Shown: positions 1 through 10,175, counted from the stretch's first letter. The stretch is DNA of 10,299 bases from Crocosphaera sp. (GCA_030064955.1 JASJDW010000142.1:1-10299), one strand, 5' to 3'. Notes: generated by a model not told the origin, from the sequence alone. A program made the numbers and translations.

Positions 1-212
1 CTTTAGCTATTTCATATTACTGTTGCCTTTTCTGAACTCCTGAACTCCCGAACTCCTAACTCCTAAAACTAGAAGAGTTTGTACCGTTCGGCTTTAGCTA
101 TTTCATATTACTGTTGCCTTTTCTGAACTCCTGAACTCCCGAACTCCTAACTCCTAAAACTAGAAGAGTTTGTACCGTTCGGCTTTAGCTATTTCATATT
201 ACTGTTGCCTTT
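1..212. repeat. 91-bp tandem direct repeat, 2 full copies plus a 30-nt partial third copy; may extend beyond the window start
   Basis: Copies start at 1, 92 and 183, and I saw no mismatches. The third copy matches through 212 and then diverges. Each unit holds a heptamer/octamer tract (33-70 and 124-161: GAACTCC TGAACTCC CGAACTCC TAACTCC TAAAACT), which reads as AGGAGTT-type units on the minus strand. Confidence 0.95.
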
Positions 213-1023
213 CCCGTAGGGATATATCTCTGCCTGGATGAGAGTATAACAAAGCCAAATTATCAACTATATTAGCTATTTTAGGATGATTCTCACTAAG
301 TAATTTTTGACTCATGTTTAAAGCTTGTAAATATAAACATTCCGCCTCTTCATATCTTCTTTGATTATGATATAGTGCAGCTAAATTATTGAGGCTATCT
401 GCCACATAAATATGATTTTCTCCTAGTAACTTTTTCTTTAATTCTAAAGCTTGTAAATATAAACATTCTGCTTTTTCAAGTTTTCCCTGGTTATAGTATA
501 ATGAAGCTAAATTATTAAGACTATGGGCAAAATCAAGATTATTTTCTCCTAGTCGTTGTTTTCTCAATTCTAATCCCTGCTCAAATAATTTTTCTGCTTC
601 TTCATACCTTTCCTCATGATAATATAATATAGCTAAATTATTAAGGCTATGAATCACATCAGGATGGTCTTTTTCTAATAATCTTTCTCTCAATTCTAAA
701 GCTTGTTCAAACAAGAATTCTGCTTCTTCATATTTTTCCTGATCATCATAAAGTGAAGCTAAATTATTAGCAATATTACTATAATTCAAGTCAGATGGTC
801 TTTCAAGAATTTCATATAGTTCCAATGCTTTTGAATAATAGACAATAGCTTGTTGTTGTTCTTTTTGATAATTTTCATTTTCTCCTTTTTCCAATTTATG
901 TTTATAAGCATCTCCTAAATTTTTATAAAGTCGAATTAAACTAGGATCGTGATCCCCTTTCTCTGTTTCAACCTGTTTAACCAATATTTGTAAATCATTT
1001 AATGGTAATAAATTCTCACTCAT
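199..1023 (-). CDS. Stand-alone TPR repeat protein (kinesin-light-chain-like TPR_10/TPR_12 type, about six 42-aa repeats), apparently 3'-truncated
   Basis: The 274-aa ORF has a recurring motif, [SN]LNNLAxLYxxQxxYEEAExLxxQALELxxxLLGExH, with a 42-aa (126-nt) period. No other domain is present. The last repeat stops after helix A (NLALLYSHPGR then DISLRERQQ*). Confidence 0.85.
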   Translation of the reverse strand: MSENLLPLNDLQILVKQVETEKGDHDPSLIRLYKNLGDAYKHKLEKGENENYQKEQQQAIVYYSKALELYEILERPSDLNYSNIANNLASLYDDQEKYEEAEFLFEQALELRERLLEKDHPDVIHSLNNLAILYYHEERYEEAEKLFEQGLELRKQRLGENNLDFAHSLNNLASLYYNQGKLEKAECLYLQALELKKKLLGENHIYVADSLNNLAALYHNQRRYEEAECLYLQALNMSQKLLSENHPKIANIVDNLALLYSHPGRDISLRERQQ

Positions 1024-1355: not shown

Positions 1356-1520
1356 AATAAAGATTGACACTCCCACCGTTAAGCTATCGCTGTAACGGGG
1401 GATTCTTTGTTCACAGAGGCTACTTGCTTAGACAGGATTTCTCCTATCGTAGTAGAGGTATCCTCTCCCAAAGCGTTTAGACTATCTTGTAGCCAGGTTC
1501 CTGAGTGACCCACAGTACCT
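1346..1520 (-). ncRNA. Predicted TnpB omega (right-end) RNA: a scaffold overlapping the 3' end of tnpB plus a flank-derived guide. Extent is a guess.
   Basis: Placed by analogy with characterised TnpB systems, where the guide RNA is read from the tnpB 3' end through the right end into flanking DNA. A bulged 10-bp hairpin (1371-1401) straddles the tnpB stop codon. There is no direct sequence proof of transcription. Confidence 0.3.
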
Positions 1521-2605
1521 AATCCGAGTTTTAAGATGTTGCGTGCAGCATTTTCATCACGATCTAACTGAGATCCACAAGCACAAATATGAGTCCTTGT
1601 TGAGAGAGATTTCTTGACTTTTTCTCCGCAATTAGAACAGTTTTGAGAAGTGAATTGAGGAGGGACAGCAATTGTTATCTTGCTGTGTTTTTCTCCCAAA
1701 TATTCAAGCCAAAGACGAAACTGATACCAGGCAGCATCATTAATTGATTTAGCTAAACAATGATTTTTAACTAAGTTCTTAATCCTTAAGTCTTCGTATG
1801 CTATCACATCGTTAGAGTGAATTACGCACCTTGCTAACTTCACAGCAAAGTCTTTACGTTGTCTACTTATTTTAAGGTGAGCTTTAGCTAATCTAGCCCG
1901 CGCTTTTCTTTGATTAGAAGACCCTTTCTTTTTTCTAGATAGTCTTCTTTGAAGTCTTTTAAGTTTCTTCTCTCCTTTTCTTAAGAATCTAGGGTTATCA
2001 ATTTTCTGTCCATTCTGGTCAGTGTAGAAGGACTGTAACCCAACATCTAAACCGACTACACTGTTAGCTGGTTCAGTATCTATTTTCACGTCAACAGAGA
2101 GAATGAACTGACAATAGTAGCCATCAGCCCTCCGAATTAGCCTTACCCTTTTAATTGATTCAATGGGGTAAAAGTTTAAATCGTAAGTCCCTACAAGTCT
2201 TACTTTACCAATGTTATTCTTATCTGTAAAAGTAATCGCTTTTCTGGTAGTTAGGTCGAGTTTCCAGCCAGTGGTTTTGTACTCCACAGAACGGCAATTC
2301 TTTTTAAACTTCGGGAAACCCTTTTTCCCAGGAATCTTGCGTTTACAGTTGTCGTAAAAACGAGATATAGCTGACCACGCTCTTTCGGCACTAGATTGCC
2401 TAGCTTGTGAGTTTAGCTGGTTAGCAAAGTCAAAATCATGGGCTAATACACGACAATATTTATTAAGGTCATACTTATTCACTTTTTCATGATCCATCCA
2501 AAAACGCAAGCATTTATTCTGGACAAACTGAGCCGTACGTATGGTCTCATCTATAGCTGTGTATTGATGCTTTTTAGCTCTAACTTTGAACTCTAAAACT
2601 AACAT
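1379..2605 (-). CDS. tnpB: TnpB (OrfB) RNA-guided nuclease / IS605-family accessory protein, 408 aa
   Basis: All RuvC-like motifs are present: VGLDVGLQ (Asp), IAYEDLRIKN (Glu), DRDENAARNI (Asp). The zinc finger CSNCG...HICACG is also present. The N-terminal MLVLEFKVRAK...QYxxIDExIRTAQFVxNKCLRFW is typical of cyanobacterial OrfB proteins. Confidence 0.93.
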   Translation of the reverse strand: MLVLEFKVRAKKHQYTAIDETIRTAQFVQNKCLRFWMDHEKVNKYDLNKYCRVLAHDFDFANQLNSQARQSSAERAWSAISRFYDNCKRKIPGKKGFPKFKKNCRSVEYKTTGWKLDLTTRKAITFTDKNNIGKVRLVGTYDLNFYPIESIKRVRLIRRADGYYCQFILSVDVKIDTEPANSVVGLDVGLQSFYTDQNGQKIDNPRFLRKGEKKLKRLQRRLSRKKKGSSNQRKARARLAKAHLKISRQRKDFAVKLARCVIHSNDVIAYEDLRIKNLVKNHCLAKSINDAAWYQFRLWLEYLGEKHSKITIAVPPQFTSQNCSNCGEKVKKSLSTRTHICACGSQLDRDENAARNILKLGLGTVGHSGTWLQDSLNALGEDTSTTIGEILSKQVASVNKESPVTAIA

Positions 2606-2667
2606 TTATGCTAACCTTACTAGCCTAAATATGAGTTTAGCACAAGTTTTCTGGTCTGAGCCAAAAA

Positions 2668-2708
2668 GCGGATGCGACCCAACCGCCGTAAGACGGCGGT
2701 AGGATGCG
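2668..2708. repeat. Perfect 7-bp hairpin flanked by a direct repeat, in the tnpB 5' leader inside the IS
   Basis: CCGCCGT-aag-ACGGCGG lies at 2683-2699. It is flanked by GGATGCG at 2670-2676 and 2702-2708. Function is unknown. Confidence 0.6.
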
Positions 2709-2757
2709 CGCACCAAGAAGTTGCTAAAATATGGTTGCTACGCAGTTAATATATTTG

Positions 2758-2811
2758 GTCGGGGTTTCATCCCACCGCTAACGTTCGTGTAACCGGGGTC
2801 TTCACCCCGAC
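2758..2811 (-). repeat. Left-end structured region of the IS (nested inverted repeats)
   Basis: GTCGGGG (2758-2764) pairs with CCCCGAC (2805-2811). An inner perfect hairpin is CGGGGT-cttc-ACCCCG (2794-2809). The region encloses the block shared with the right end (2770-2798). Confidence 0.75.
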
Positions 2812-2835
2812 ATTTCAAGATAAATAATTGAATCA

Positions 2836-5628
2836 ATGCGCTGTTTAAACTGCCACTTGGATAACCTTCCCGAAACTACCCAAACCTGTCCCAATTGTGG
2901 GGCGCAAGTTGTCGCTTTGTTACAAGAAGTGTTACCCCAAGGCACCCAACTGCGATCGCAGACATATTGTCTTGAAGATGCTATGGGGAAAGGCAGTTTT
3001 GGCATTACCTATCGCGCCCATCATACCGCATTAAAGAATCCTGTCGCCATTAAAGAGTTTTATCCCATTGAGTACGTATCTCGAAATATTGAAACCAAAC
3101 TATTAATTATTCCCGAAAAACATCGAGACGCATACAAAAGAAACTTATATCGTTTTTTAGAAGAAGGACAAATATTAGCTAAGCTGAATCATCCCAATGT
3201 AGTTAAAGTTAGGGATTTATTTGAAGAACGAGACACCGCTTACATTGTTATGGAGTTGGTACAAGGAAAAACTTTATTACAAGAATTAGAAAATCAGCCC
3301 AACAAAAAACTAACTCTCGACAGAATAGAAAATTTAATTGGACAATTAGTTAATGCGTTAACTGCCATTCATGAAGCAGGGATTTATCATCTAGATTTGA
3401 AACCCGAAAATATACTCTTAACCCCCAATGATCAATTGATTCTAATTGATTTTGGAGCAGCCACATTAGCCGATGATGCTAAACGAAAAAAGACCCGTTC
3501 TTTTACCGAATGTTATGCAGCCCCAGAAATTATGTCAGGGGGAGAAGTTGGCCCTGAAAGTGATCTATTTGAAGTAGGGATGATTCTTCATGAACTATTA
3601 ACAGGAACCTTGCCACCTCCAGCTATGAAGCGTGTTCTAGAAACCGATATTTGGCAGCCTCAAGGGTTAGAGCATCCTTGGGATATGTTAATCGTTGATG
3701 CGTTAAGAATTCAAAGAATCTATCGCAGTTCCACTGTAGAACAATGGTGGGAACTAAGAAAACAAAAACAAGGAAATAGTATCAACCTTGAACAAAAAAG
3801 CGTTGAAAATTTACAAGGAAAATTTACGCTGCCCTTATTACAACAACAAGGCATGACTCAAAAACTAGGGCGAGGTTGTATTAAAACAGTGATTCCGATT
3901 AATCAAATTCAAGTCTTAGTTTTAGAAGCGGGGGGCGCATCTTTATTCGATGTAAATACTGGTATTATTCCTTGGGAAATTGATTGTCCTACCTCCTGTG
4001 GAGCCATCAGCAAAAATCAAAAAATACTAGCTTTAGTTTGGCAAAAAAATATCTATTTATGGGATTTAACTCAAGGGAAATTTTTGCGACAATTACAAGG
4101 TCATTCAAAAAAAATAACTGACCTAGCGTTTAATCAAGATGGCTCTTTATTACTCTCAGGAAGCCTTGATGAAACCTTAATTATCTGGGACATTCAAACA
4201 GGCAGAAAACGTCACGAACTATCTGAACCGATGGGACGCATCACTGCCGTTGCTTTTAGCGAAGATAGTCAATTTGTTGCCTCTGGTTGCCATAGCGGAA
4301 TTGTGAGAATTTGGGGAGCTATTTCCGGTCAAGAATGGCGATGTTTAGAAGGACACCAAATGGCAGTAGAAACCTTAATTTTTAGCCCAGATAGCAAAGT
4401 ATTAGCCTCTGGCGGACAGGATCAAATCATTCATTTATGGGACGTTACTTCAGGGAAATTGCAACAAGTATTAGAAGGCCATCAAGACTGGATAACAGCA
4501 TTAAATTTTGATAAAACAGCAAGTTATTTAGCCTCTGCATCAGCAATTAATGATAAAACCATTCGTATTTGGTCTGTTGCACAAGGACAACCCACCCAAC
4601 AACTACAGGGTCACAGTAACACCATCCAAGCGATCGCTTTTTGTCCCGATGATCGTTATTTGGTCTCAGCAGCATTAGACAACACTATCCGTCTCTGGGA
4701 CAGAGAAACTGGAAAGGCGATCAAACAACTACAACAACATACCAATTGGGTGTATAGTGTGGCTTGTAGTGGGGACGGTCGTTGGGTGGCGATCGGATAC
4801 AGCGATTGGACGGTACATCTTTGGGATATCATTGAACAACGGGAAGTTAGTTGTCTTGAAGGTCATGAAAGTGCTGTTTCTAGTGTGGCCTTTTGTCCTG
4901 ATAATCAACATCTTATCTCTGGGAGTTGGGATGGAACCCTAAGAGTCTGGGATATTCACACAGGAAAATGTAAACGCATTTTACAGGGTCATCAACACTG
5001 GGTTAGTTGTGTTGCGGTGAGTTCTAATGGTCAATGGGTTGCGTCTGGAAGTTGGGATAAAACTGTTTGTCTTTGGGAGACTACTAATAGTTGGCACCAG
5101 TTTAAAATCAGTAAACCTACTCGTATTTTACAGGGTCATTTAGAAGATATTGAAGGGGTTGCTTTTAGTCCTGATAGTCAATTAATTGCTAGTTCTGGTA
5201 ATGATAAAACCATTAAAATATGGGAAGTTGTATCCGGTCAACAGGTTCAACAATTAGAGGGTCATAAATATAGTGTAGAGGATTTGGTTTTTAGTCCCGA
5301 TGGTCAATTTATTGCTTCAGTTAGTCGAGATAAAACTGTTAGAGTTTGGCACGTTATTTCTGGTAAAGAAATTCATCGATTTCAAGGCCATACCAATTAT
5401 GTTAAATGTGTGGCGTTTAGTTTGGAAGGTCGGTATTTGGCCTCAGGGGGAAAAGATCAAATGATTGCCATTTGGGATTTAATTTCAGGCGAATTAACTC
5501 AATTAATTCAAGGTCATACCAATTGTATTAATAGTATTGCTTTTACTGGGGATGGTTCTTTTTTAGTGTCTGGAGATAATGATGGAGTGGTTCGGTTATG
5601 GAAATTACAGTTAGGAAGCGAGGGTTAG
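2836..5628 (+). CDS. Multidomain Hanks-type Ser/Thr protein kinase: N-terminal CxxC-x11-CxxC zinc ribbon, kinase domain, C-terminal WD40 array (12 clear plus 2 degenerate blades)
   Basis: Kinase motifs seen: G-loop GKGSFGITY, VAIKE Lys, catalytic loop HLDLKPEN (3388-3411), DFG (3448-3456), APE. These are followed by repeated GH-x(23-30)-WD units from about aa 345 to the C-terminus. Confidence 0.93.
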   Translation: MRCLNCHLDNLPETTQTCPNCGAQVVALLQEVLPQGTQLRSQTYCLEDAMGKGSFGITYRAHHTALKNPVAIKEFYPIEYVSRNIETKLLIIPEKHRDAYKRNLYRFLEEGQILAKLNHPNVVKVRDLFEERDTAYIVMELVQGKTLLQELENQPNKKLTLDRIENLIGQLVNALTAIHEAGIYHLDLKPENILLTPNDQLILIDFGAATLADDAKRKKTRSFTECYAAPEIMSGGEVGPESDLFEVGMILHELLTGTLPPPAMKRVLETDIWQPQGLEHPWDMLIVDALRIQRIYRSSTVEQWWELRKQKQGNSINLEQKSVENLQGKFTLPLLQQQGMTQKLGRGCIKTVIPINQIQVLVLEAGGASLFDVNTGIIPWEIDCPTSCGAISKNQKILALVWQKNIYLWDLTQGKFLRQLQGHSKKITDLAFNQDGSLLLSGSLDETLIIWDIQTGRKRHELSEPMGRITAVAFSEDSQFVASGCHSGIVRIWGAISGQEWRCLEGHQMAVETLIFSPDSKVLASGGQDQIIHLWDVTSGKLQQVLEGHQDWITALNFDKTASYLASASAINDKTIRIWSVAQGQPTQQLQGHSNTIQAIAFCPDDRYLVSAALDNTIRLWDRETGKAIKQLQQHTNWVYSVACSGDGRWVAIGYSDWTVHLWDIIEQREVSCLEGHESAVSSVAFCPDNQHLISGSWDGTLRVWDIHTGKCKRILQGHQHWVSCVAVSSNGQWVASGSWDKTVCLWETTNSWHQFKISKPTRILQGHLEDIEGVAFSPDSQLIASSGNDKTIKIWEVVSGQQVQQLEGHKYSVEDLVFSPDGQFIASVSRDKTVRVWHVISGKEIHRFQGHTNYVKCVAFSLEGRYLASGGKDQMIAIWDLISGELTQLIQGHTNCINSIAFTGDGSFLVSGDNDGVVRLWKLQLGSEG

Positions 5629-5715: not shown

Positions 5716-6141
5716 ATGGAACCTTTTACCACTGCAAAAATTCTGGAGTTTGTGGTAGGTGCAGTGATTACAATGGGGGTAGAAAATCTTCCAACTGCCA
5801 CTAAAAAACTCTGGCAAACTATTCGTAACCGTCTGCAAAATCAACCCGTTGCACAAGTAGCGATCGCAGAAATTGAGGAAAATAACTCGCCAGATCAAAT
5901 TCCCAAATTGGCCCCTTTCTTGGAGGTGGAAATGCTGTCTGATGAGACGTTTGAACAACAGGTGCAGCAGTTAGCAAAAGAAGCTATTGAGCAAGATAAA
6001 GAAACAATTAATATTTATGTTGCTAAAGCTGAAAAAAGTACAGTTGTTGGGAAGCAAGAAGCAGAAAATCTAAACAATTATAATGCAGAAACAATTAGTA
6101 ATATTGGCACACAGAATGTTATTAACGTAAAAAAGGAATAG
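5716..6141 (+). CDS. Hypothetical 141-aa protein with a hydrophobic N-terminal helix and an acidic/Gln-rich helical remainder; probably the N-terminal module of the downstream STAND protein
   Basis: The ORF starts MEPFTTAKILEFVVGAVITMGVENL. It ends two codons after an A_AAA_AAG heptamer. The -1 frame is open from there into the NB-ARC ORF. Confidence 0.6.
   Translation: MEPFTTAKILEFVVGAVITMGVENLPTATKKLWQTIRNRLQNQPVAQVAIAEIEENNSPDQIPKLAPFLEVEMLSDETFEQQVQQLAKEAIEQDKETINIYVAKAEKSTVVGKQEAENLNNYNAETISNIGTQNVINVKKE
6129..6135 (+). promoter_or_regulatory. Candidate -1 programmed ribosomal frameshift slippery site A_AAA_AAG (alternatively the site of a 1-nt homopolymer indel)
   Basis: In the 5716 frame the codons are GTA AAA AAG GAA TAG. 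A -1 slip continues GGA ATA GGG ... in the frame of ORF 6267..9008. I could not find an obvious downstream stimulatory stem-loop or an upstream SD-like element. Confidence 0.4.
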
Positions 6142-6266
6142 GGGAAAATGATGTACAACGACTCATAGAATTTTGGCAAGAAAAACCTGATAGGAAAGCG
6201 ACCTTAGCATCAAGTTTAATTACATCGCCTCCTGTTGTTAAACCTTGGGTAGATAGGTTAGAAGAA

Positions 6267-9008
6267 ATGACCACTATTCAAGGTTGGTTTGATGATGCTG
6301 ACGTTAATTTAATGGGTATTGTTGGGTTAGGTGGAATCGGAAAATCTGCCTTAGCTGCGTATTTTTATAATAGATTTTCTCCTTCTCCCACACTCCCCAC
6401 ACCTCCCACACTGCCCACCCTCAAATTCTGGGCTGATGTTAGTTTAAATCCCGATTTTGCTGCTTTTGCTGAATCCATTATTAAGGGTTTATCAGGAACT
6501 TTGAATGCGACGGGTGACGTTAATATTTTAATTGCTGATTTATTCAAGATTTTACATCAACATCGTTGTTTATTGGTGGTGGATAATGTTGAAACTTTGC
6601 TAAACGAATCAGGAGAATGGCAAAGCGAAAATTATACTACCTTTTTCCAGCGTTGGAAGCAACAGGGACACACCAGTATTTTGTTATTGACCACAAGAGA
6701 TAAACCTAACCTTTATCGAGGGAATAATTATTGGTATTCTTTGGGAACTTTCACAGTTGATGAAGGTAAAACTTTATTAAAAGCATTACAAATTGAAGGA
6801 AGTGACAAAGACTTAGAACAATTAGTTACTAAAATAAATGGTCATGCGTTGACCTTAAGATTAGTGGCAGCATACCTCAAAGAATATTGTGATAGTCAAC
6901 TAAGTCAAGTGAGAGAATTGGGGTTAGATGAATTTGAGTTAATTTACGAAGAAGCATCAGGACTCCATCGTCATAAAAACGATGCACGATTATCATGGAT
7001 ATTAGAACAACATTTAACCCGTTTAAGTGAACAACAAAGACAATTTTTAGTTAATTTATCCGTCTATCGTCAACCCTTTGATGTAACAGCAGCAACAGGG
7101 ATGTATATCAATGCTAATTTTACAGAAGGAGAGACAGAAGCAACCATAAAACCCATAGAAGTCAAGAAAGAATTACAAAATTTAGCTAATCGTTCCTTAT
7201 TATCTCGTAGCGATGAAAAAGGTTATGAATGTCCCCTATTACTTAAACCCTATTTACAGAAAAAATATCCCGACTTAACCCAGTGTCATCAAATAGCGAT
7301 TAATTATTATTTATCTATTGTTCCCCCGAAACCCTGGACAAACCTCGATCAGATACAAGGATATTTAGAGATTTTCTATCATTGGTATCAATTAGGAGAA
7401 TATGACACTGCATTTGATTATTTGCGTCATGTTGATGAGTTTATGACCCTTCAGGGATATTATCATCTTCAGGTCAAATATTATTCAGATTTAGTGAGGA
7501 TTTATGAGGAAATAGAAGATCAAAATAATTGGAACTATGCTGCTTCTCTCACTTCTTTGGGGAATGCTTACCAATCCCTGGGACAATATCAACAAGCGAT
7601 ACAACACCATCAACAGTCTTTAGCTATCTTTATAGAAATAGAGAATCGCAACGGTGAAGAGTCTTCCTATGGTAATTTGGGGAATGCTTACTTTTCCCTG
7701 GGAAAATATCAAGAAGCGATAGAATACTATCAACAGTCTTTAGCTATCACCACAGAAATCGGAGATCGCAATGGTGAAGCTAATTCCTATATAGGTTTGG
7801 GGAATGCTTACTTTTCCCTGGGACAATATCAACAAGCAATAGAAGACTATAATAAATCTTTAGCTATCTTTCAAAAAATCGGAGATCGCAAGGGTGAAGC
7901 TAATTCCTACAGTAATTTGGGGAGTGCTTACGATTCCCTGGGAAAATATCAAGAAGCGATAGAATACCATCAACAGTCCTTAGCTATCACCACAGAAATA
8001 GGCGATCGCAATGGTGAAGCTACTTCCTATATAGGTTTGGGGATTGCTTACCGTTCCCTGGGAAAATATCAAGAAGCGATAGAATACTATCAACAGTCCT
8101 TAGCTATCCAAACAGAAATCGGCGATCGCAACGGTGAAGCTAATTCCTATGGTAATTTGGGAAATGCTTACTCTTCCCTGGGACAATATCAAGAAGCGAT
8201 AGAATACCATCAACAGTCCTTAGCTATCACCACAGAAATAGGCGATCGCAATGGTGAAGCTAATTCCTATATAGGTTTGGGGAATGCTTACTCTTCCCTG
8301 GGACAATATCAACAAGCGATAGAATACCATCAACAATCTTTAGCTATCCAAACAGAAATCGGCGATCGCAACGGTGAAGCTAATTCCTATATAGGTTTGG
8401 GGAATACTTACTCTTCCCTGGGACAATATCAACAAGCGATAGAATACTATCAACAGTCTTTAGCTATCACCACAGAAATCGGCGCTCACAATGGTGAAGC
8501 TAGTTCCTATAATAATTTTGGGAATGTTTACTATTTGCTGGGACAATATCAACAAGCGATACAATACTATCAACAGTCTTTAGCTATCACCACAGAAATC
8601 GGCGCTCACAATGGTGAAGCTACTTCCTATATGGGTTTGGGGAATGCTTACCGTTCCCTGGGACAATATCAACAAGCAATAGAATACTATCAACAGTCCT
8701 TAGCTATCAAAAGAGAAATCGGCGATCGCTATGGTGAAGCAAATGCTTGGTTTAACTTAGGATTAACATTAAAGAAATTAAACCGTAAATCAGAAGCAAA
8801 AGAATGTTATCAAAAATCTCGTCAATTATATCAAGTAATGGGACTGGATCGAGATGTTCAAGACTGTAACAACCAACTCATCAAACTACAACGAGGATGG
8901 TTAGAAAAGATTTTTTATTTTATCTTAGGAGTGATTAAGTTTCCTGTTGCGTTAGTTGTGTTTGTTTTGCTCAAAGTTTGGGAATGGATTAGAAAAATGA
9001 TTCATTAG
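6267..9008 (+). CDS. STAND NTPase: NB-ARC domain plus about eleven 40-aa TPR repeats plus a C-terminal hydrophobic tail. The annotated ATG is probably not the true N-terminus, because the frame is open from 6126.
   Basis: Motifs seen: Walker A GLGGIGKS (6324-6347), Walker B LLVVDNVE (Asp at 6582), LLLTTRD, GHALTL (GxP-like). The TPR units have consensus GEAxSYxxLGNAYxSLGQYQQAIEYxQQSLAIxxEIGDRN. The tail is IFYFILGVIKFPVALVVFVLLKVW. Confidence 0.9.
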   Translation: MTTIQGWFDDADVNLMGIVGLGGIGKSALAAYFYNRFSPSPTLPTPPTLPTLKFWADVSLNPDFAAFAESIIKGLSGTLNATGDVNILIADLFKILHQHRCLLVVDNVETLLNESGEWQSENYTTFFQRWKQQGHTSILLLTTRDKPNLYRGNNYWYSLGTFTVDEGKTLLKALQIEGSDKDLEQLVTKINGHALTLRLVAAYLKEYCDSQLSQVRELGLDEFELIYEEASGLHRHKNDARLSWILEQHLTRLSEQQRQFLVNLSVYRQPFDVTAATGMYINANFTEGETEATIKPIEVKKELQNLANRSLLSRSDEKGYECPLLLKPYLQKKYPDLTQCHQIAINYYLSIVPPKPWTNLDQIQGYLEIFYHWYQLGEYDTAFDYLRHVDEFMTLQGYYHLQVKYYSDLVRIYEEIEDQNNWNYAASLTSLGNAYQSLGQYQQAIQHHQQSLAIFIEIENRNGEESSYGNLGNAYFSLGKYQEAIEYYQQSLAITTEIGDRNGEANSYIGLGNAYFSLGQYQQAIEDYNKSLAIFQKIGDRKGEANSYSNLGSAYDSLGKYQEAIEYHQQSLAITTEIGDRNGEATSYIGLGIAYRSLGKYQEAIEYYQQSLAIQTEIGDRNGEANSYGNLGNAYSSLGQYQEAIEYHQQSLAITTEIGDRNGEANSYIGLGNAYSSLGQYQQAIEYHQQSLAIQTEIGDRNGEANSYIGLGNTYSSLGQYQQAIEYYQQSLAITTEIGAHNGEASSYNNFGNVYYLLGQYQQAIQYYQQSLAITTEIGAHNGEATSYMGLGNAYRSLGQYQQAIEYYQQSLAIKREIGDRYGEANAWFNLGLTLKKLNRKSEAKECYQKSRQLYQVMGLDRDVQDCNNQLIKLQRGWLEKIFYFILGVIKFPVALVVFVLLKVWEWIRKMIH
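7561..8760 (+). repeat. Ten in-phase 120-bp tandem DNA repeats encoding the TPR units, with no indels and high nucleotide identity
   Basis: Units start at 7561, 7681, 7801, 7921, 8041, 8161, 8281, 8401, 8521 and 8641. For example, 8161-8280 versus 8281-8400 differ at 9 of 120 positions by my count, and 7981-8040 versus 8221-8280 differ at 1 of 60. More degenerate units flank the array on both sides. Confidence 0.95.
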
Positions 9009-9190
9009 GGTTGAGGAATTTCTAAATCTCTACAAATTTTGCGGACTAAAAACTCATTAATTTCTCGATGTCTTGGAATCGCTGACACTTTTTGAACCAT
9101 TCGATTAACATAGATTGTATGATTTCCTCCTTCTCGAAGAAACTCGCATCCATTGACTTCTAAATGCTTAATTAAATCTCGTCTTTTCAT
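9005..9190 (-). CDS. hicA: HicA-family type II toxin (mRNA interferase), 61 aa
   Basis: The sequence MKRRDLIKHLEVNGCEFLREGGNHTIYVN...SAIPRHREI matches the HicA/YcfA pattern, including the conserved GxxH and IPRH segments. Its start codon overlaps the hicB stop. Confidence 0.85.
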   Translation of the reverse strand: MKRRDLIKHLEVNGCEFLREGGNHTIYVNRMVQKVSAIPRHREINEFLVRKICRDLEIPQP

Positions 9191-9405
9191 TACCCTGATA
9201 CAGTTAGGGTTTCTCTAATAACATCCATTCCTTGAATAGATTCTTCTGCTAACATTCGATTAGCTTCTAAGACTAAATCTATTGCTTCTAATAAATTACT
9301 TCTCGCTTCCTCTAGGGTTGTTCCTTGAGTGTTTGCACCTGGTAATTCTTCAACAAAAGCAATATAACCTTCTGGAACCTTTTGAAAAATTGCTGTTAAC
9401 TGCAT
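9190..9405 (-). CDS. hicB: HicB-family antitoxin, short form (UPF0150-like fold only), 71 aa
   Basis: The sequence MQLTAIFQKVPEGYIAFVEELPGANTQGTTLEEARSNLLEAIDLVLEA is the typical HicB N-terminal domain. It is coupled to hicA through a TAATG overlap at 9188-9192. Confidence 0.8.
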   Translation of the reverse strand: MQLTAIFQKVPEGYIAFVEELPGANTQGTTLEEARSNLLEAIDLVLEANRMLAEESIQGMDVIRETLTVSG

Positions 9406-9546
9406 AAATGTCCATTTTTATTGTTCCTAAGTCATTATATCATAAAATTTTTTATCATCTGTTCATCTCGTTTACACCCACTAAATTATTTATTTATATA
9501 AAATATATATTAACCCATGCTGACTACGATAAGGAGAACTGGAAAA

Positions 9547-9948
9547 ATGACCCTTACTTTTAATCGAGACACTTACGGAAGTTTACTGGCTAAATATCAA
9601 CCTAAAATTATTGAAACTGAGGAAGAAAACGAACAAGCGATCGCCCTTTGTGAACAACTTTCTCATGTTGAAAAGCCAAGTTTAGAAGAATCAGCGTTCT
9701 TGGAATTATTAATCACCTTAATTGAAAAGTATGAAGCAGAGAATTATCCCATTTCCCAAGCATTACCCCATGAAATATTGACTCATTTGATGGAAAGTAG
9801 AAACTTAGACATCCAACAACTATTAAACATTTTAGGAACAGATTTAATTAATCAAGAAATATTAACAGGTGAACGAAAAATTACTGATGAACAAGCCAAA
9901 AGACTAAGTATGTTTTTTAATGTTTCTTCCGATCTATTTAGATTATAA
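9547..9948 (+). CDS. HTH (XRE-type, COG5499/HigA-like) antitoxin-type transcriptional regulator; start moved to the internal ATG
   Basis: The N-terminal part has YxxLLxxYxPKxIETEEENEQA...LIEKYE. The C-terminal part has an HTH-like segment (LTHLMESRNLDIQQLLNILG...ILTGERKITDEQAKRLSMFFNVSSDLF). AAGGAG at 9531-9536 precedes ATG 9547; the ORF-track start at 9517 has no SD. Confidence 0.7.
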   Translation: MTLTFNRDTYGSLLAKYQPKIIETEEENEQAIALCEQLSHVEKPSLEESAFLELLITLIEKYEAENYPISQALPHEILTHLMESRNLDIQQLLNILGTDLINQEILTGERKITDEQAKRLSMFFNVSSDLFRL

Positions 9949-9974
9949 CCATAATTTAAACAAAGAGAATAACC

Positions 9975-10175
9975 ATGAAAGTTAAATATGATCCAGAATC
10001 AGATATTTTAATTTTTATCATCAAAGATATTCCCCCCTCTAATGCTATTTCAGAAGCAGGAGAAATTATTATTAGTTATGATGAGACAGGTGAACCTATT
10101 AGCATTGAATTTTTAAATGCTTCTAAAAGACAATTAATTAATCCCCAAGAAACTGCTTTACAAATTCATCAATAA
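9975..10175 (+). CDS. DUF2283-family small protein, 66 aa
   Basis: MKVKYDPESDILIFIIKD...ISYDETGEPISIEFLNASK matches the DUF2283 pattern (YDxExDxL ... DxxGxxxGIExL). Confidence 0.7.
   Translation: MKVKYDPESDILIFIIKDIPPSNAISEAGEIIISYDETGEPISIEFLNASKRQLINPQETALQIHQ

Follow-up and report, generated by a model that had tools for sequence, protein, structure and literature searches.

Can a bacterial receptor reshuffle the repeats of its sensor domain and diversify the binding groove, as fungal NOD-like receptors (NLRs) do? This question is raised by a gene in a 10,299-bp stretch of Crocosphaera sp. DNA (GCA_030064955.1 JASJDW010000142.1:1-10299; this whole stretch is hereafter called the window), which encodes an NB-ARC ATPase of the STAND class (signal transduction ATPases that have numerous domains) followed by a tandem array of tetratricopeptide repeats (TPRs). 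We consider it likely, with a probability of about 0.75, that this array is the sensor domain of an NLR-like STAND ATPase, that its groove-facing columns set specificity, and that units 2-10 are reshuffled by recombination or duplication. The analysis centres on the following two features.

6267-9008, plus strand: called open reading frame (ORF) of 913 aa, NB-ARC STAND NTPase with TPR array and tail (from Pfam, Foldseek and invariant columns)
7542-8741, plus strand: TPR array of ten 40-codon units (from Tandem Repeats Finder, the register and a per-column table, Pfam TPR_12 and AlphaFold)

A ten-unit TPR array in exact register

Tandem Repeats Finder reported one array at 7556-8744 (period 120, 86% matches, 9.9 copies). 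The first base of unit k is 7542+120(k-1), and all ten units translate in the frame of the ORF 6267-9008 with zero indels. This is the same array of ten 120-bp units in exact register that a first-pass annotation of the sequence had placed at 7561-8760, offset by 19 nt. The units share the scaffold xSYxxLGxAYxSLGxYQxAIEYxQQSLAIxxEIGDRxGEA and fit the TPR packing pattern L7-G8-Y11 / A20 / F(Y)24 / A(S)27, where a unit column equals the TPR position minus 1. Pfam assigned 11 stretches to TPR_12 (clan CL0020) with an E-value of 1.8e-177. The AlphaFold model has a mean predicted local distance difference test score of 87.7 over the whole protein and of 95-98 over the array, where it consists of paired 18-residue helices, with columns 36-40 and 1-13 of a unit forming helix A and columns 16-33 forming helix B. 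The top Foldseek match is 6mfv, a STAND-TPR protein, followed by TPR-peptide complexes of LGN/Pins at 33-34% identity. The LGN complexes were matched with a TM-score (target) of up to 0.63, and we assigned the faces of the groove through their register. A phmmer search likewise aligned the units with Pins/LGN without gaps over about 200 residues, and the mostly conserved Asn at column 8 corresponds to the Asn of the LGN 'LGN' signature.

Among units 2-10, identity ranges from 77.5 to 94.2% at the nucleotide level (mean 86.4%) and from 57.5 to 90% at the amino acid level (mean 77%), while unit 1 differs from each other unit at 26-31 of its 120 nt. Hence, the ten-unit array is real, but its earlier description as near-identical was overstated, as units 2-10 average 86% and 77% at the two levels and unit 1 is older. 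Other members of this NB-ARC/TPR family reach 92-94% internal nucleotide identity. The family is found in cyanobacteria, where it is widespread (45 protein hits, 169 genomic loci), and the closest relatives are found in Crocosphaera, where the NB-ARC domain is 83-90% identical. An exact-protein look-up of the 913-aa product gave no recorded match, and a genome scan of the GTDB representatives gave no 100% match, the best being 90%.

Variable columns recur across the family and mostly coincide with ligand-contact columns of LGN

The most variable columns in the window are, in rank order, 30, 11, 4, 5, 1 and then 31. Together, these six columns hold about 53-55% of the pairwise nonsynonymous differences, the remainder being spread out, and their ratio of nonsynonymous to synonymous divergence (dN/dS) by the Nei-Gojobori method is about 4, versus 0.44-0.46 at the other 34 codons, the choice of the six columns for the window being post hoc. 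For a family-wide test, we collected in-register units from 60 members and kept those arrays, 28 besides that of the window, whose internal nucleotide identity is at least 80%. Ranked by nonsynonymous divergence, columns 1, 4, 30, 11 and 5 lead in these arrays, and the column ranking correlates with that of the window (Spearman rho 0.66, p = 3e-6). The proportion of nonsynonymous differences (pN) at these five hot columns is 2.0-2.7 times the pooled synonymous value (pS, 0.187). When the family-defined columns (1, 4, 5, 11 and 30) are applied back to units 2-10 of the window, 18 of the 40 minimum nonsynonymous steps fall in these 5 of 40 columns. According to the first-pass annotation, the substitutions were limited to a few positions of helix A. 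Columns 1, 4, 5 and 11 are indeed hot, but the hot column 30 is on helix B, and almost half of the changes fall outside the six columns.

If the array resulted from a recent lineage-specific tandem amplification without continuing homogenisation, the variable columns might simply be exposed, tolerant positions. However, at the helix-B columns 17, 24 and 25, which by helical phase lie on the outer face, pN is only 0.02-0.05, far below the pS of 0.19, so plain relaxation is unlikely and the hot columns are not merely unconstrained surface. The elevation of the hot columns in all 28 arrays taken together, and the multi-nucleotide codon changes that accumulate at columns 4, 11 and 30, argue against this explanation as well.

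We next placed the hot columns on the groove through the register of LGN, using an LGN sequence that all seven published contact residues matched at a single numbering offset. These residues, namely, R221/R236, K106, Y139, N100, R136 and D81, are contacts of the Gpsm2(LGN)-Whirlin complex in the inner concave groove lined by the alpha-A helices (PMC9187228). In unit columns, R221 and D81 correspond to 26, R236 and R136 to 1, K106 to 11, Y139 to 4 and N100 to 5. Based on this mapping, four of the five hot columns (1, 4, 5 and 11) are ligand-contact columns of LGN, the nearest homologue with a solved structure. The remaining one, column 30, is one helical turn past column 26 on helix B, and we take it to be groove-facing. 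The TPR register and the variable TPR positions 2, 5, 6 and 12 given in the first-pass annotation are therefore correct, being the LGN contact columns 1, 4, 5 and 11; its helix-A mapping had left out the helix-B site at column 30.

As a separate observation, diversification by a diversity-generating retroelement (DGR) was considered and rejected: no reverse transcriptase or template repeat lies near the gene, and the reverse transcriptase near the related locus L087 is of the group II intron type.

Units 2-10 turn over between species

In a nearest-neighbour analysis, units 2-10 had their nearest relatives in their own array (88-94%) rather than in other species (82-91%), whereas unit 1 was nearest to unit 1 of C. 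chwakensis (85%, versus 78% within the array). Unit 1 is thus an older unit, matched one-to-one in a sister species, and units 2-10 are an internally similar, lineage-specific block. A comparable organisation is seen in three Crocosphaera metagenome-assembled genomes (MAGs; loci L003-L005), where the flanking units are one-to-one orthologous at 93-100% and internal similarity is found in the central block only. C. chwakensis CCY0110 has 2 units and L003-L005 have about 9-12, whereas the window has 10. Between these species, the NB-ARC domain has a dN/dS (omega) of 0.14-0.27 and a dS of 0.21-0.35; the units of the array, compared with one another, have a dS of 0.17 and an omega of 0.86. The first-pass annotation had held that variable sites scattered evenly or lying on the convex face, or an array identical across divergent strains, would argue against diversification; the hot columns are concentrated and mostly at the groove-contact columns of LGN, and divergent lineages do not have the same array. 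Its proposed comparison of repeat number bears this out between species (2, about 9-12 and 10), but the array is identical in all assemblies of this population.

Several long tracts are common to separate units, including 78 identical bases at 7945/8185 and 60 at 8443/8563, and the single-base difference noted earlier between 7981-8040 and 8221-8280 was verified. HIP1 is present in units 4-7 and 10, and its place is taken by GGAGATCGC in units 2-3 and by GGCGCTCAC in units 8-9, as had also been noted. Sites with matching polymorphisms are clustered (permutation tests, p = 0.016 and p < 0.0005), and 32 of the 78 informative site pairs fail the four-gamete test. Units 2-7 pair at lag two with 93-94% identity (units 2/4/6 and 5/7) and contain the 78-bp identical tract at this lag, which suggests steps of 240 bp. 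The similarity and mosaic data fit unequal recombination or gene conversion, and are also compatible with recent amplification. Accordingly, the claim that the array is kept homogeneous by crossing-over or gene conversion stands insofar as units 2-10 are closer to one another than to those of other species, but this process is indistinguishable here from a recent amplification of one or two units at a time.

It is on these data that the amplification explanation, acting largely in two-unit steps, has to be judged. The lag-two pairing and its 78-bp tract are what it would predict; the within-array dS of 0.17 is only slightly below the between-species dS of 0.21-0.35, and no strain-level turnover was observed among the assemblies of this population. 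However, the four-gamete failures and the clustering of tracts point to exchange between units, and high internal identity recurs independently in many genera. Together with the column pattern, this makes an amplification without continuing exchange or selection unlikely, although it is the strongest of the alternatives that we considered.

Reliability of the assembled array

The source is a Crocosphaera-like cyanobacterium in short-read marine sediment metagenomes, with a depth of about 8-11x, and short-read assemblers might have collapsed, expanded or chimerised the repeat, leaving the unit count, the unit order and the mosaic tracts unreliable. Within the array, the Logan contigs of the best run break into pieces of 78-149 bp, so the unit order is not validated by them, and 8468-8555 is essentially uncovered at 100% identity in that run. 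Independent scaffolds of this population have 100-N gaps at 7967|7968, 8239|8240 and 8447|8448, of which the first and third are at unit phase 66, 480 bp apart, and the second is at phase 98; an NCBI contig ends at 8022. Gaps are found inside the arrays of other loci as well: L008, L053, L074 and L081 have runs of N within their TPR arrays, so the published repeat counts of the family are unreliable. Failure to assemble internally conserved TPR arrays is common in this family. On the other hand, a single contig covers 2607-8447 (7.5 units), and for each joint another assembly has a contig that bridges it; the ten units in this order should therefore be read as a minimal tiling rather than a long-read-verified count. 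Unique pieces of the array have single-copy depth (7.8-14.6, versus 7.5-11.1 in the flanks), and the array is identical among independent assemblies of this population, which differ only at 2610-3075. Moreover, the column pattern is independent of unit order and recurs in genomes that are complete or nearly so (Microcystis CP169647 and CP191408, and Nostoc AP018180). The mosaic signal could be inflated by short-read assembly, but an artefact behind the pattern as a whole is very unlikely.

Weighing the sensor reading

Several points weigh against the reading of the array as a reshuffled, diversifying sensor. The inter-unit amino acid identity of 77% is below the 85% cut-off used for 'highly conserved' fungal repeats. 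In the window on its own, the contrast of nonsynonymous to synonymous changes is not significant (18:3 versus 22:10, p = 0.2, by a conservative Fisher test based on a minimum spanning tree), so the dN/dS argument rests on the family-wide replication. Thus, the per-site dN/dS comparison that the first-pass annotation had proposed as a check gave an excess at the hot columns of both the window and the 28 arrays, but no significant contrast for the window-only counts. These dN/dS values also come from simple counting on recombining paralogous units, not from a codon model that allows for recombination; column 30 is placed in 3-D by deduction from helical phase and from LGN R221/D81 at column 26; and, as the assemblies break inside the array, chimeric units could mimic mosaicism. 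Finally, PADLOC matched the protein to generic 'TPR repeats containing protein' models only, and to no curated defence-system or Avs model.

This last result would be expected if the protein were a regulatory or scaffolding STAND rather than an immune receptor, with an array that binds an endogenous partner and with unit differences that reflect fixed, position-specific roles. The one-to-one orthology of most flanking units of L003-L005 between species points in the same direction. Against it, the central block is without orthology between species, and the unit number varies from 2 to 12. The gene also has a Bell-like partner gene (see below), relatives carry a TIR domain, and HicAB and TnpB genes are found nearby, with HepT/MNT in relatives. 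We therefore regard such a role as improbable, less so than an assembly artefact.

If the array is a sensor, as we prefer to read it, its units would stack into a superhelix with an inner groove lined by helix A. The residues at columns 1, 4, 5 and 11, and at column 30 on the groove-facing end of helix B, would differ from unit to unit and set the ligand specificity, while the packing residues and the outer face would be held almost invariant. Units 2-10 would have arisen, and would continue to be reshuffled, by unequal recombination or duplication of 120- or 240-bp segments, so that the number and content of the units would change fast between lineages while purifying selection continues to act on the NB-ARC domain. 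If the analogy with Avs and fungal NLRs holds, ligand binding may release autoinhibition and allow the NB-ARC domain to oligomerise, and the oligomer may in turn activate a membrane-targeting Bell-like effector encoded just upstream.

Architecture outside the array

Three further features of the protein flank the array.

7279-7541, plus strand: degenerate N-terminal TPR-like helices capping the array, about 2.5 repeats, aa 338-425 (from AlphaFold)
8742-8861, plus strand: degenerate 11th TPR unit (NAWFNLGLTLKKLNRKSEAKECYQ...), a C-terminal cap conserved family-wide
8910-8981, plus strand: hydrophobic, transmembrane-like C-terminal helix IFYFILGVIKFPVALVVFVLLKVW, aa 882-905 (from AlphaFold)

The Pfam match to NB-ARC (PF00931) spans aa 4-205 and scores 38.8 bits, versus a cut-off of 23.5 bits. 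The Walker A motif GLGGIGKS at aa 20-27 and the Walker B motif LLVVDNVE at aa 102-109 fit the patterns GxxxxGK[ST] and hhhhD, respectively. An 18-bp tandem repeat of 2.2 copies at 6385-6422 encodes a Pro/Thr-rich insertion (SPSPTLPTPPTLPTL) directly after the P-loop helix, which is not present in C. chwakensis; its read depth is 340-520x, versus 8-24x in the flanks, indicating that the motif is common elsewhere in the metagenome. The helices of the N-terminal cap are predicted at aa 338-351, 360-375, 379-396 and 399-416, and the YLEIFYH motif of this region is kept in all homologues. The transmembrane-like helix sits inside one long predicted helix (aa 861-912). A tail of this type with an AFPFALV-type motif is found in 17 of 67 family members, and many Nostoc members have a Trp/Arg-rich amphipathic tail instead (RGFWVWLRRLWRWVRSWFRR). 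To our knowledge, NLR-like proteins do not usually have a membrane-associated C-terminus. A paralogue in L002 (P0039, on a Crocosphaera MAG contig) has a Bell-like domain fused in frame to the pre-TPR and TPR regions, without NB-ARC, and its units hold an 8-residue insertion (LAEGEIRKAA).

The called ORF departs from the tripartite layout of NLRs in that it begins at position 8 of the NB-ARC profile, without an N-terminal effector domain. An effector domain would thus be present only if recoding from the small ORF at 5716-6141 takes place.

A Bell-like ORF upstream and a candidate recoding site

The region directly upstream contains the following features.

5716-6141, plus strand: 141-aa Bell-like small protein (from upstream homologues, descriptions in preprints and predicted helices)
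6129-6135, plus strand: heptamer A_AAA_AAG, candidate site of a -1 frameshift, in the phase of the small ORF and one codon ahead of its TAG
6135-6266, plus strand: 44 codons of the NLR frame without a start codon, encoding GIGENDVQRLIEFWQEKPDRKATLASSLITSPPVVKPWVDRLEE (from pN/pS and a peptide alignment)

The Bell-like ORF encodes an N-terminal MEP followed by a hydrophobic helix, a confidently predicted domain of five helices and a disordered tail that is rich in N/Q/G and contains two pseudo-repeats. Its N-terminus (MEPFTTAKILEFVVGAVITMGV) has the hydrophobic helix and the acidic residue at position 2-3 described for Bell proteins of about 120-140 aa, it is collinear with the NLR gene, and a homologue lies directly upstream of the NLR gene in about 30 loci. 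Neither Pfam nor PADLOC gave a match, and a Foldseek search with the model found no PDB fold match (best E 3.3), which leaves Bell membership unproven. The tails of the Bell-like proteins (xDTNINLGK / IGTQVNLGK) and the STNLITTPP motif on the NLR side resemble each other loosely.

Relative to the small ORF, the NLR lies in the -1 frame, which opens at 6126 and contains no ATG, GTG or TTG until 6267. Judged by its substitutions, the 44-codon stretch before that start is under purifying selection, having a pN/pS of 0.28 and zero stops in four genomes, versus 3-6 stops in the other frames, and an NLITTPP..W motif occurs in it family-wide (post-slip peptides of 15 loci). An in-phase X_XXY_YYZ heptamer is found at 15 of the 18 -1 junctions (the window, L004, L005, L006, L009, L011 and L014-L022), versus 9% of control ORFs. 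These heptamers are of four types, A_AAA_AAG, G_GGA_AAG, G_GGA_AAC and C_CCA_AAG, and usually lie 0-1 codon before the stop. Downstream of the heptamer in the window we found no stimulatory RNA structure, as the minimum free energy of -4.9 kcal/mol is weaker than that of all 200 shuffles, and no upstream Shine-Dalgarno-like element was seen there by eye.

In L010 (7866), L012 (7911) and L013 (7911), both ORFs are in the same frame with only TGA-C between them, and the NLITTPP motif precedes the first start codon. A same-frame TGA junction is also seen in L057 and in the Microcystis loci L032, L039, L041 and L043 (7878), with a C after the TGA in most. In the Microcystis loci, the differences between the TGA and the first start are distributed over the codon positions as 26/12/4, unlike under purifying selection, which makes readthrough doubtful there. 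In the window, a -1 frameshift at A_AAA_AAG probably joins the Bell-like ORF to the NLR frame. More broadly, we lean towards the view that the NLR is made by recoding from the Bell-like gene rather than from a start codon of its own, through a -1 frameshift in the window and at least 14 other cyanobacterial loci and through TGA readthrough in L010, L012 and L013. Recoding of this kind would yield much free Bell-like membrane effector and a fixed small fraction of a Bell-NB-ARC-TPR fusion, and the fusion could seed or activate the free effector after the TPR array binds its ligand. The words frameshift and readthrough are absent from both preprints on Bell/NLR pairs (10.1101/2020.01.06.895854 and 10.1101/2024.11.07.622273), and a full-text literature search returned no link between programmed frameshifting and bacterial NLR or STAND genes.

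Neighbouring genes

After the NLR gene there are a HicA/HicB toxin-antitoxin pair, a 143-aa ORF without a family match and a DUF2283 gene (9005-9405 on the minus strand and 9517-10175 on the plus strand). The relative L087 has HepT/MNT and a second HicAB pair at the same position, and the neighbourhood resembles a defence or toxin-antitoxin island. Immediately upstream of the Bell-like/NLR pair, as in all Crocosphaera loci, the plus strand at 2836-5628 encodes a protein of 930 aa that combines a zinc ribbon and a Ser/Thr kinase domain with 12 WD40 repeats. Its kinase part matches the PADLOC models mad6 and PD-T4-6, and the protein may belong to the Bell-like/NLR system. Further upstream, a TnpB/OrfB_IS605 gene (with a Cas12f-like TNB domain; 1379-2605, minus strand) is not found at the syntenic C. 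chwakensis locus, and L084, a co-occurring variant scaffold, departs from the window only at 2822-3075, adjoining the TnpB insertion. At the edge of the window, a perfect 91-bp direct repeat (1-212, 2.3 copies, 100% identity) with runs of the octamer CTGAACTC adjoins the 3' end of a KLC-type TPR gene (199-1023, minus strand).

Relation to known systems

Among fungal NLRs there are NB-ARC/TPR genes whose repeats are highly conserved internally, are polymorphic in number (2 to more than 14) and have sites under positive selection on the concave face (Dyrka 2014, PMC4986451). For bacterial NLRs, TPR and WD repeats with 80-90% internal conservation have been described, and the same regime has been called likely (Dyrka 2020, preprint 10.1101/2020.01.06.895854). 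Our array shares with the fungal proteins, such as the HET-E/HET-D/NWD WD40 arrays and Podospora Pa_2_10340 (Paoletti 2007; Chevanne 2010; Dyrka 2014), the NB-ARC plus TPR architecture, units far more alike than in ordinary TPR proteins, a varying repeat number, a few hypervariable, positively selected positions on the binding face, and a tendency towards even-numbered or two-unit steps. It differs from them in its bacterial host, in having units of 40 residues (LGN-type) rather than 42 (KLC-type), in its amino acid identity of 77% rather than 85% or more, in a repeat number whose variation is shown between species only, and in the stable orthologous flanks around a dynamic block. Concerted evolution combined with diversifying selection is thus a pattern already known from fungal NLRs, of which the array is a new bacterial example. 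The likeness drawn in the first-pass annotation to diversifying STAND conflict systems was off target: in a term search of Kaur 2020, diversification was attributed to DGRs and to the shuffling of modules or domains, and neither 'gene conversion' nor repeat homogenisation was found.

The MEPIS motif and the Bell/NLR pairs have been described in the Dyrka 2020 and the Bab/Agp (10.1101/2024.11.07.622273) preprints. Like these pairs, the locus has a helical protein of about 140 aa with an MEP-hydrophobic N-terminal helix and an unstructured tail, collinear with and upstream of a cyanobacterial NB-ARC/TPR gene. However, the NLR frame here is without its own start for 44 codons and shares a slippery heptamer with the Bell-like ORF, which it overlaps in the -1 frame, and the pairing of C-terminal and N-terminal motifs is only loose (DTNINLGK-type versus STNLITTPP). 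The heptamer itself is like the dnaX- and IS3-type -1 sites (A_AAA_AAG), being an in-phase X_XXY_YYZ with a 0-frame stop 0-1 codon downstream in most relatives and two predicted products with a common N-terminus. It is unlike them in having no downstream hairpin and no upstream Shine-Dalgarno-like element. That some related lineages have an in-frame TGA instead is reminiscent of the alternation between frameshift and readthrough at retroviral gag-pol junctions.

With LGN/Pins/AGS3 (PDB 3sf4, 3ro2, 4wnd and 7ep7), the array shares 40-residue TPRs, the LGNAY and GDR signatures and 33-34% identity, and these proteins bind peptides in the inner groove through helix-A residues at the columns that are variable here. 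However, LGN is a scaffold protein of eukaryotes; its eight repeats have diverged, and it has neither an NTPase nor repeat homogenisation. Antiviral STAND proteins such as Avs and bNACHT (Gao 2022; PMC13581612) combine a STAND NTPase with a C-terminal TPR-like sensor as well. Binding of a phage protein by the Avs sensor leads to oligomerisation, which offers a model for how our array may work, although Avs sensors are irregular, non-repetitive and TPR-like and act through shape complementarity. Here, a Bell-like domain, either separate or joined by recoding, would be the effector.

Implications

These results are evidence, at individual sites and across the family, that the TPR sensors of bacterial NLR-like receptors diversify in the same way as those of fungal NLRs, by reshuffling of units and by selection on groove residues, which strengthens the case for an evolutionary strategy common across kingdoms. 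They also single out five columns in each unit as candidate determinants of specificity. Of the two leads, the more novel is the possible coupling of the Bell-like gene to the NLR by recoding. If it is true, the regulation of bacterial immune receptors would include a new principle, in which a cell-death effector is coupled to its sensor, and many such NLR genes would be annotated with truncated N-termini.

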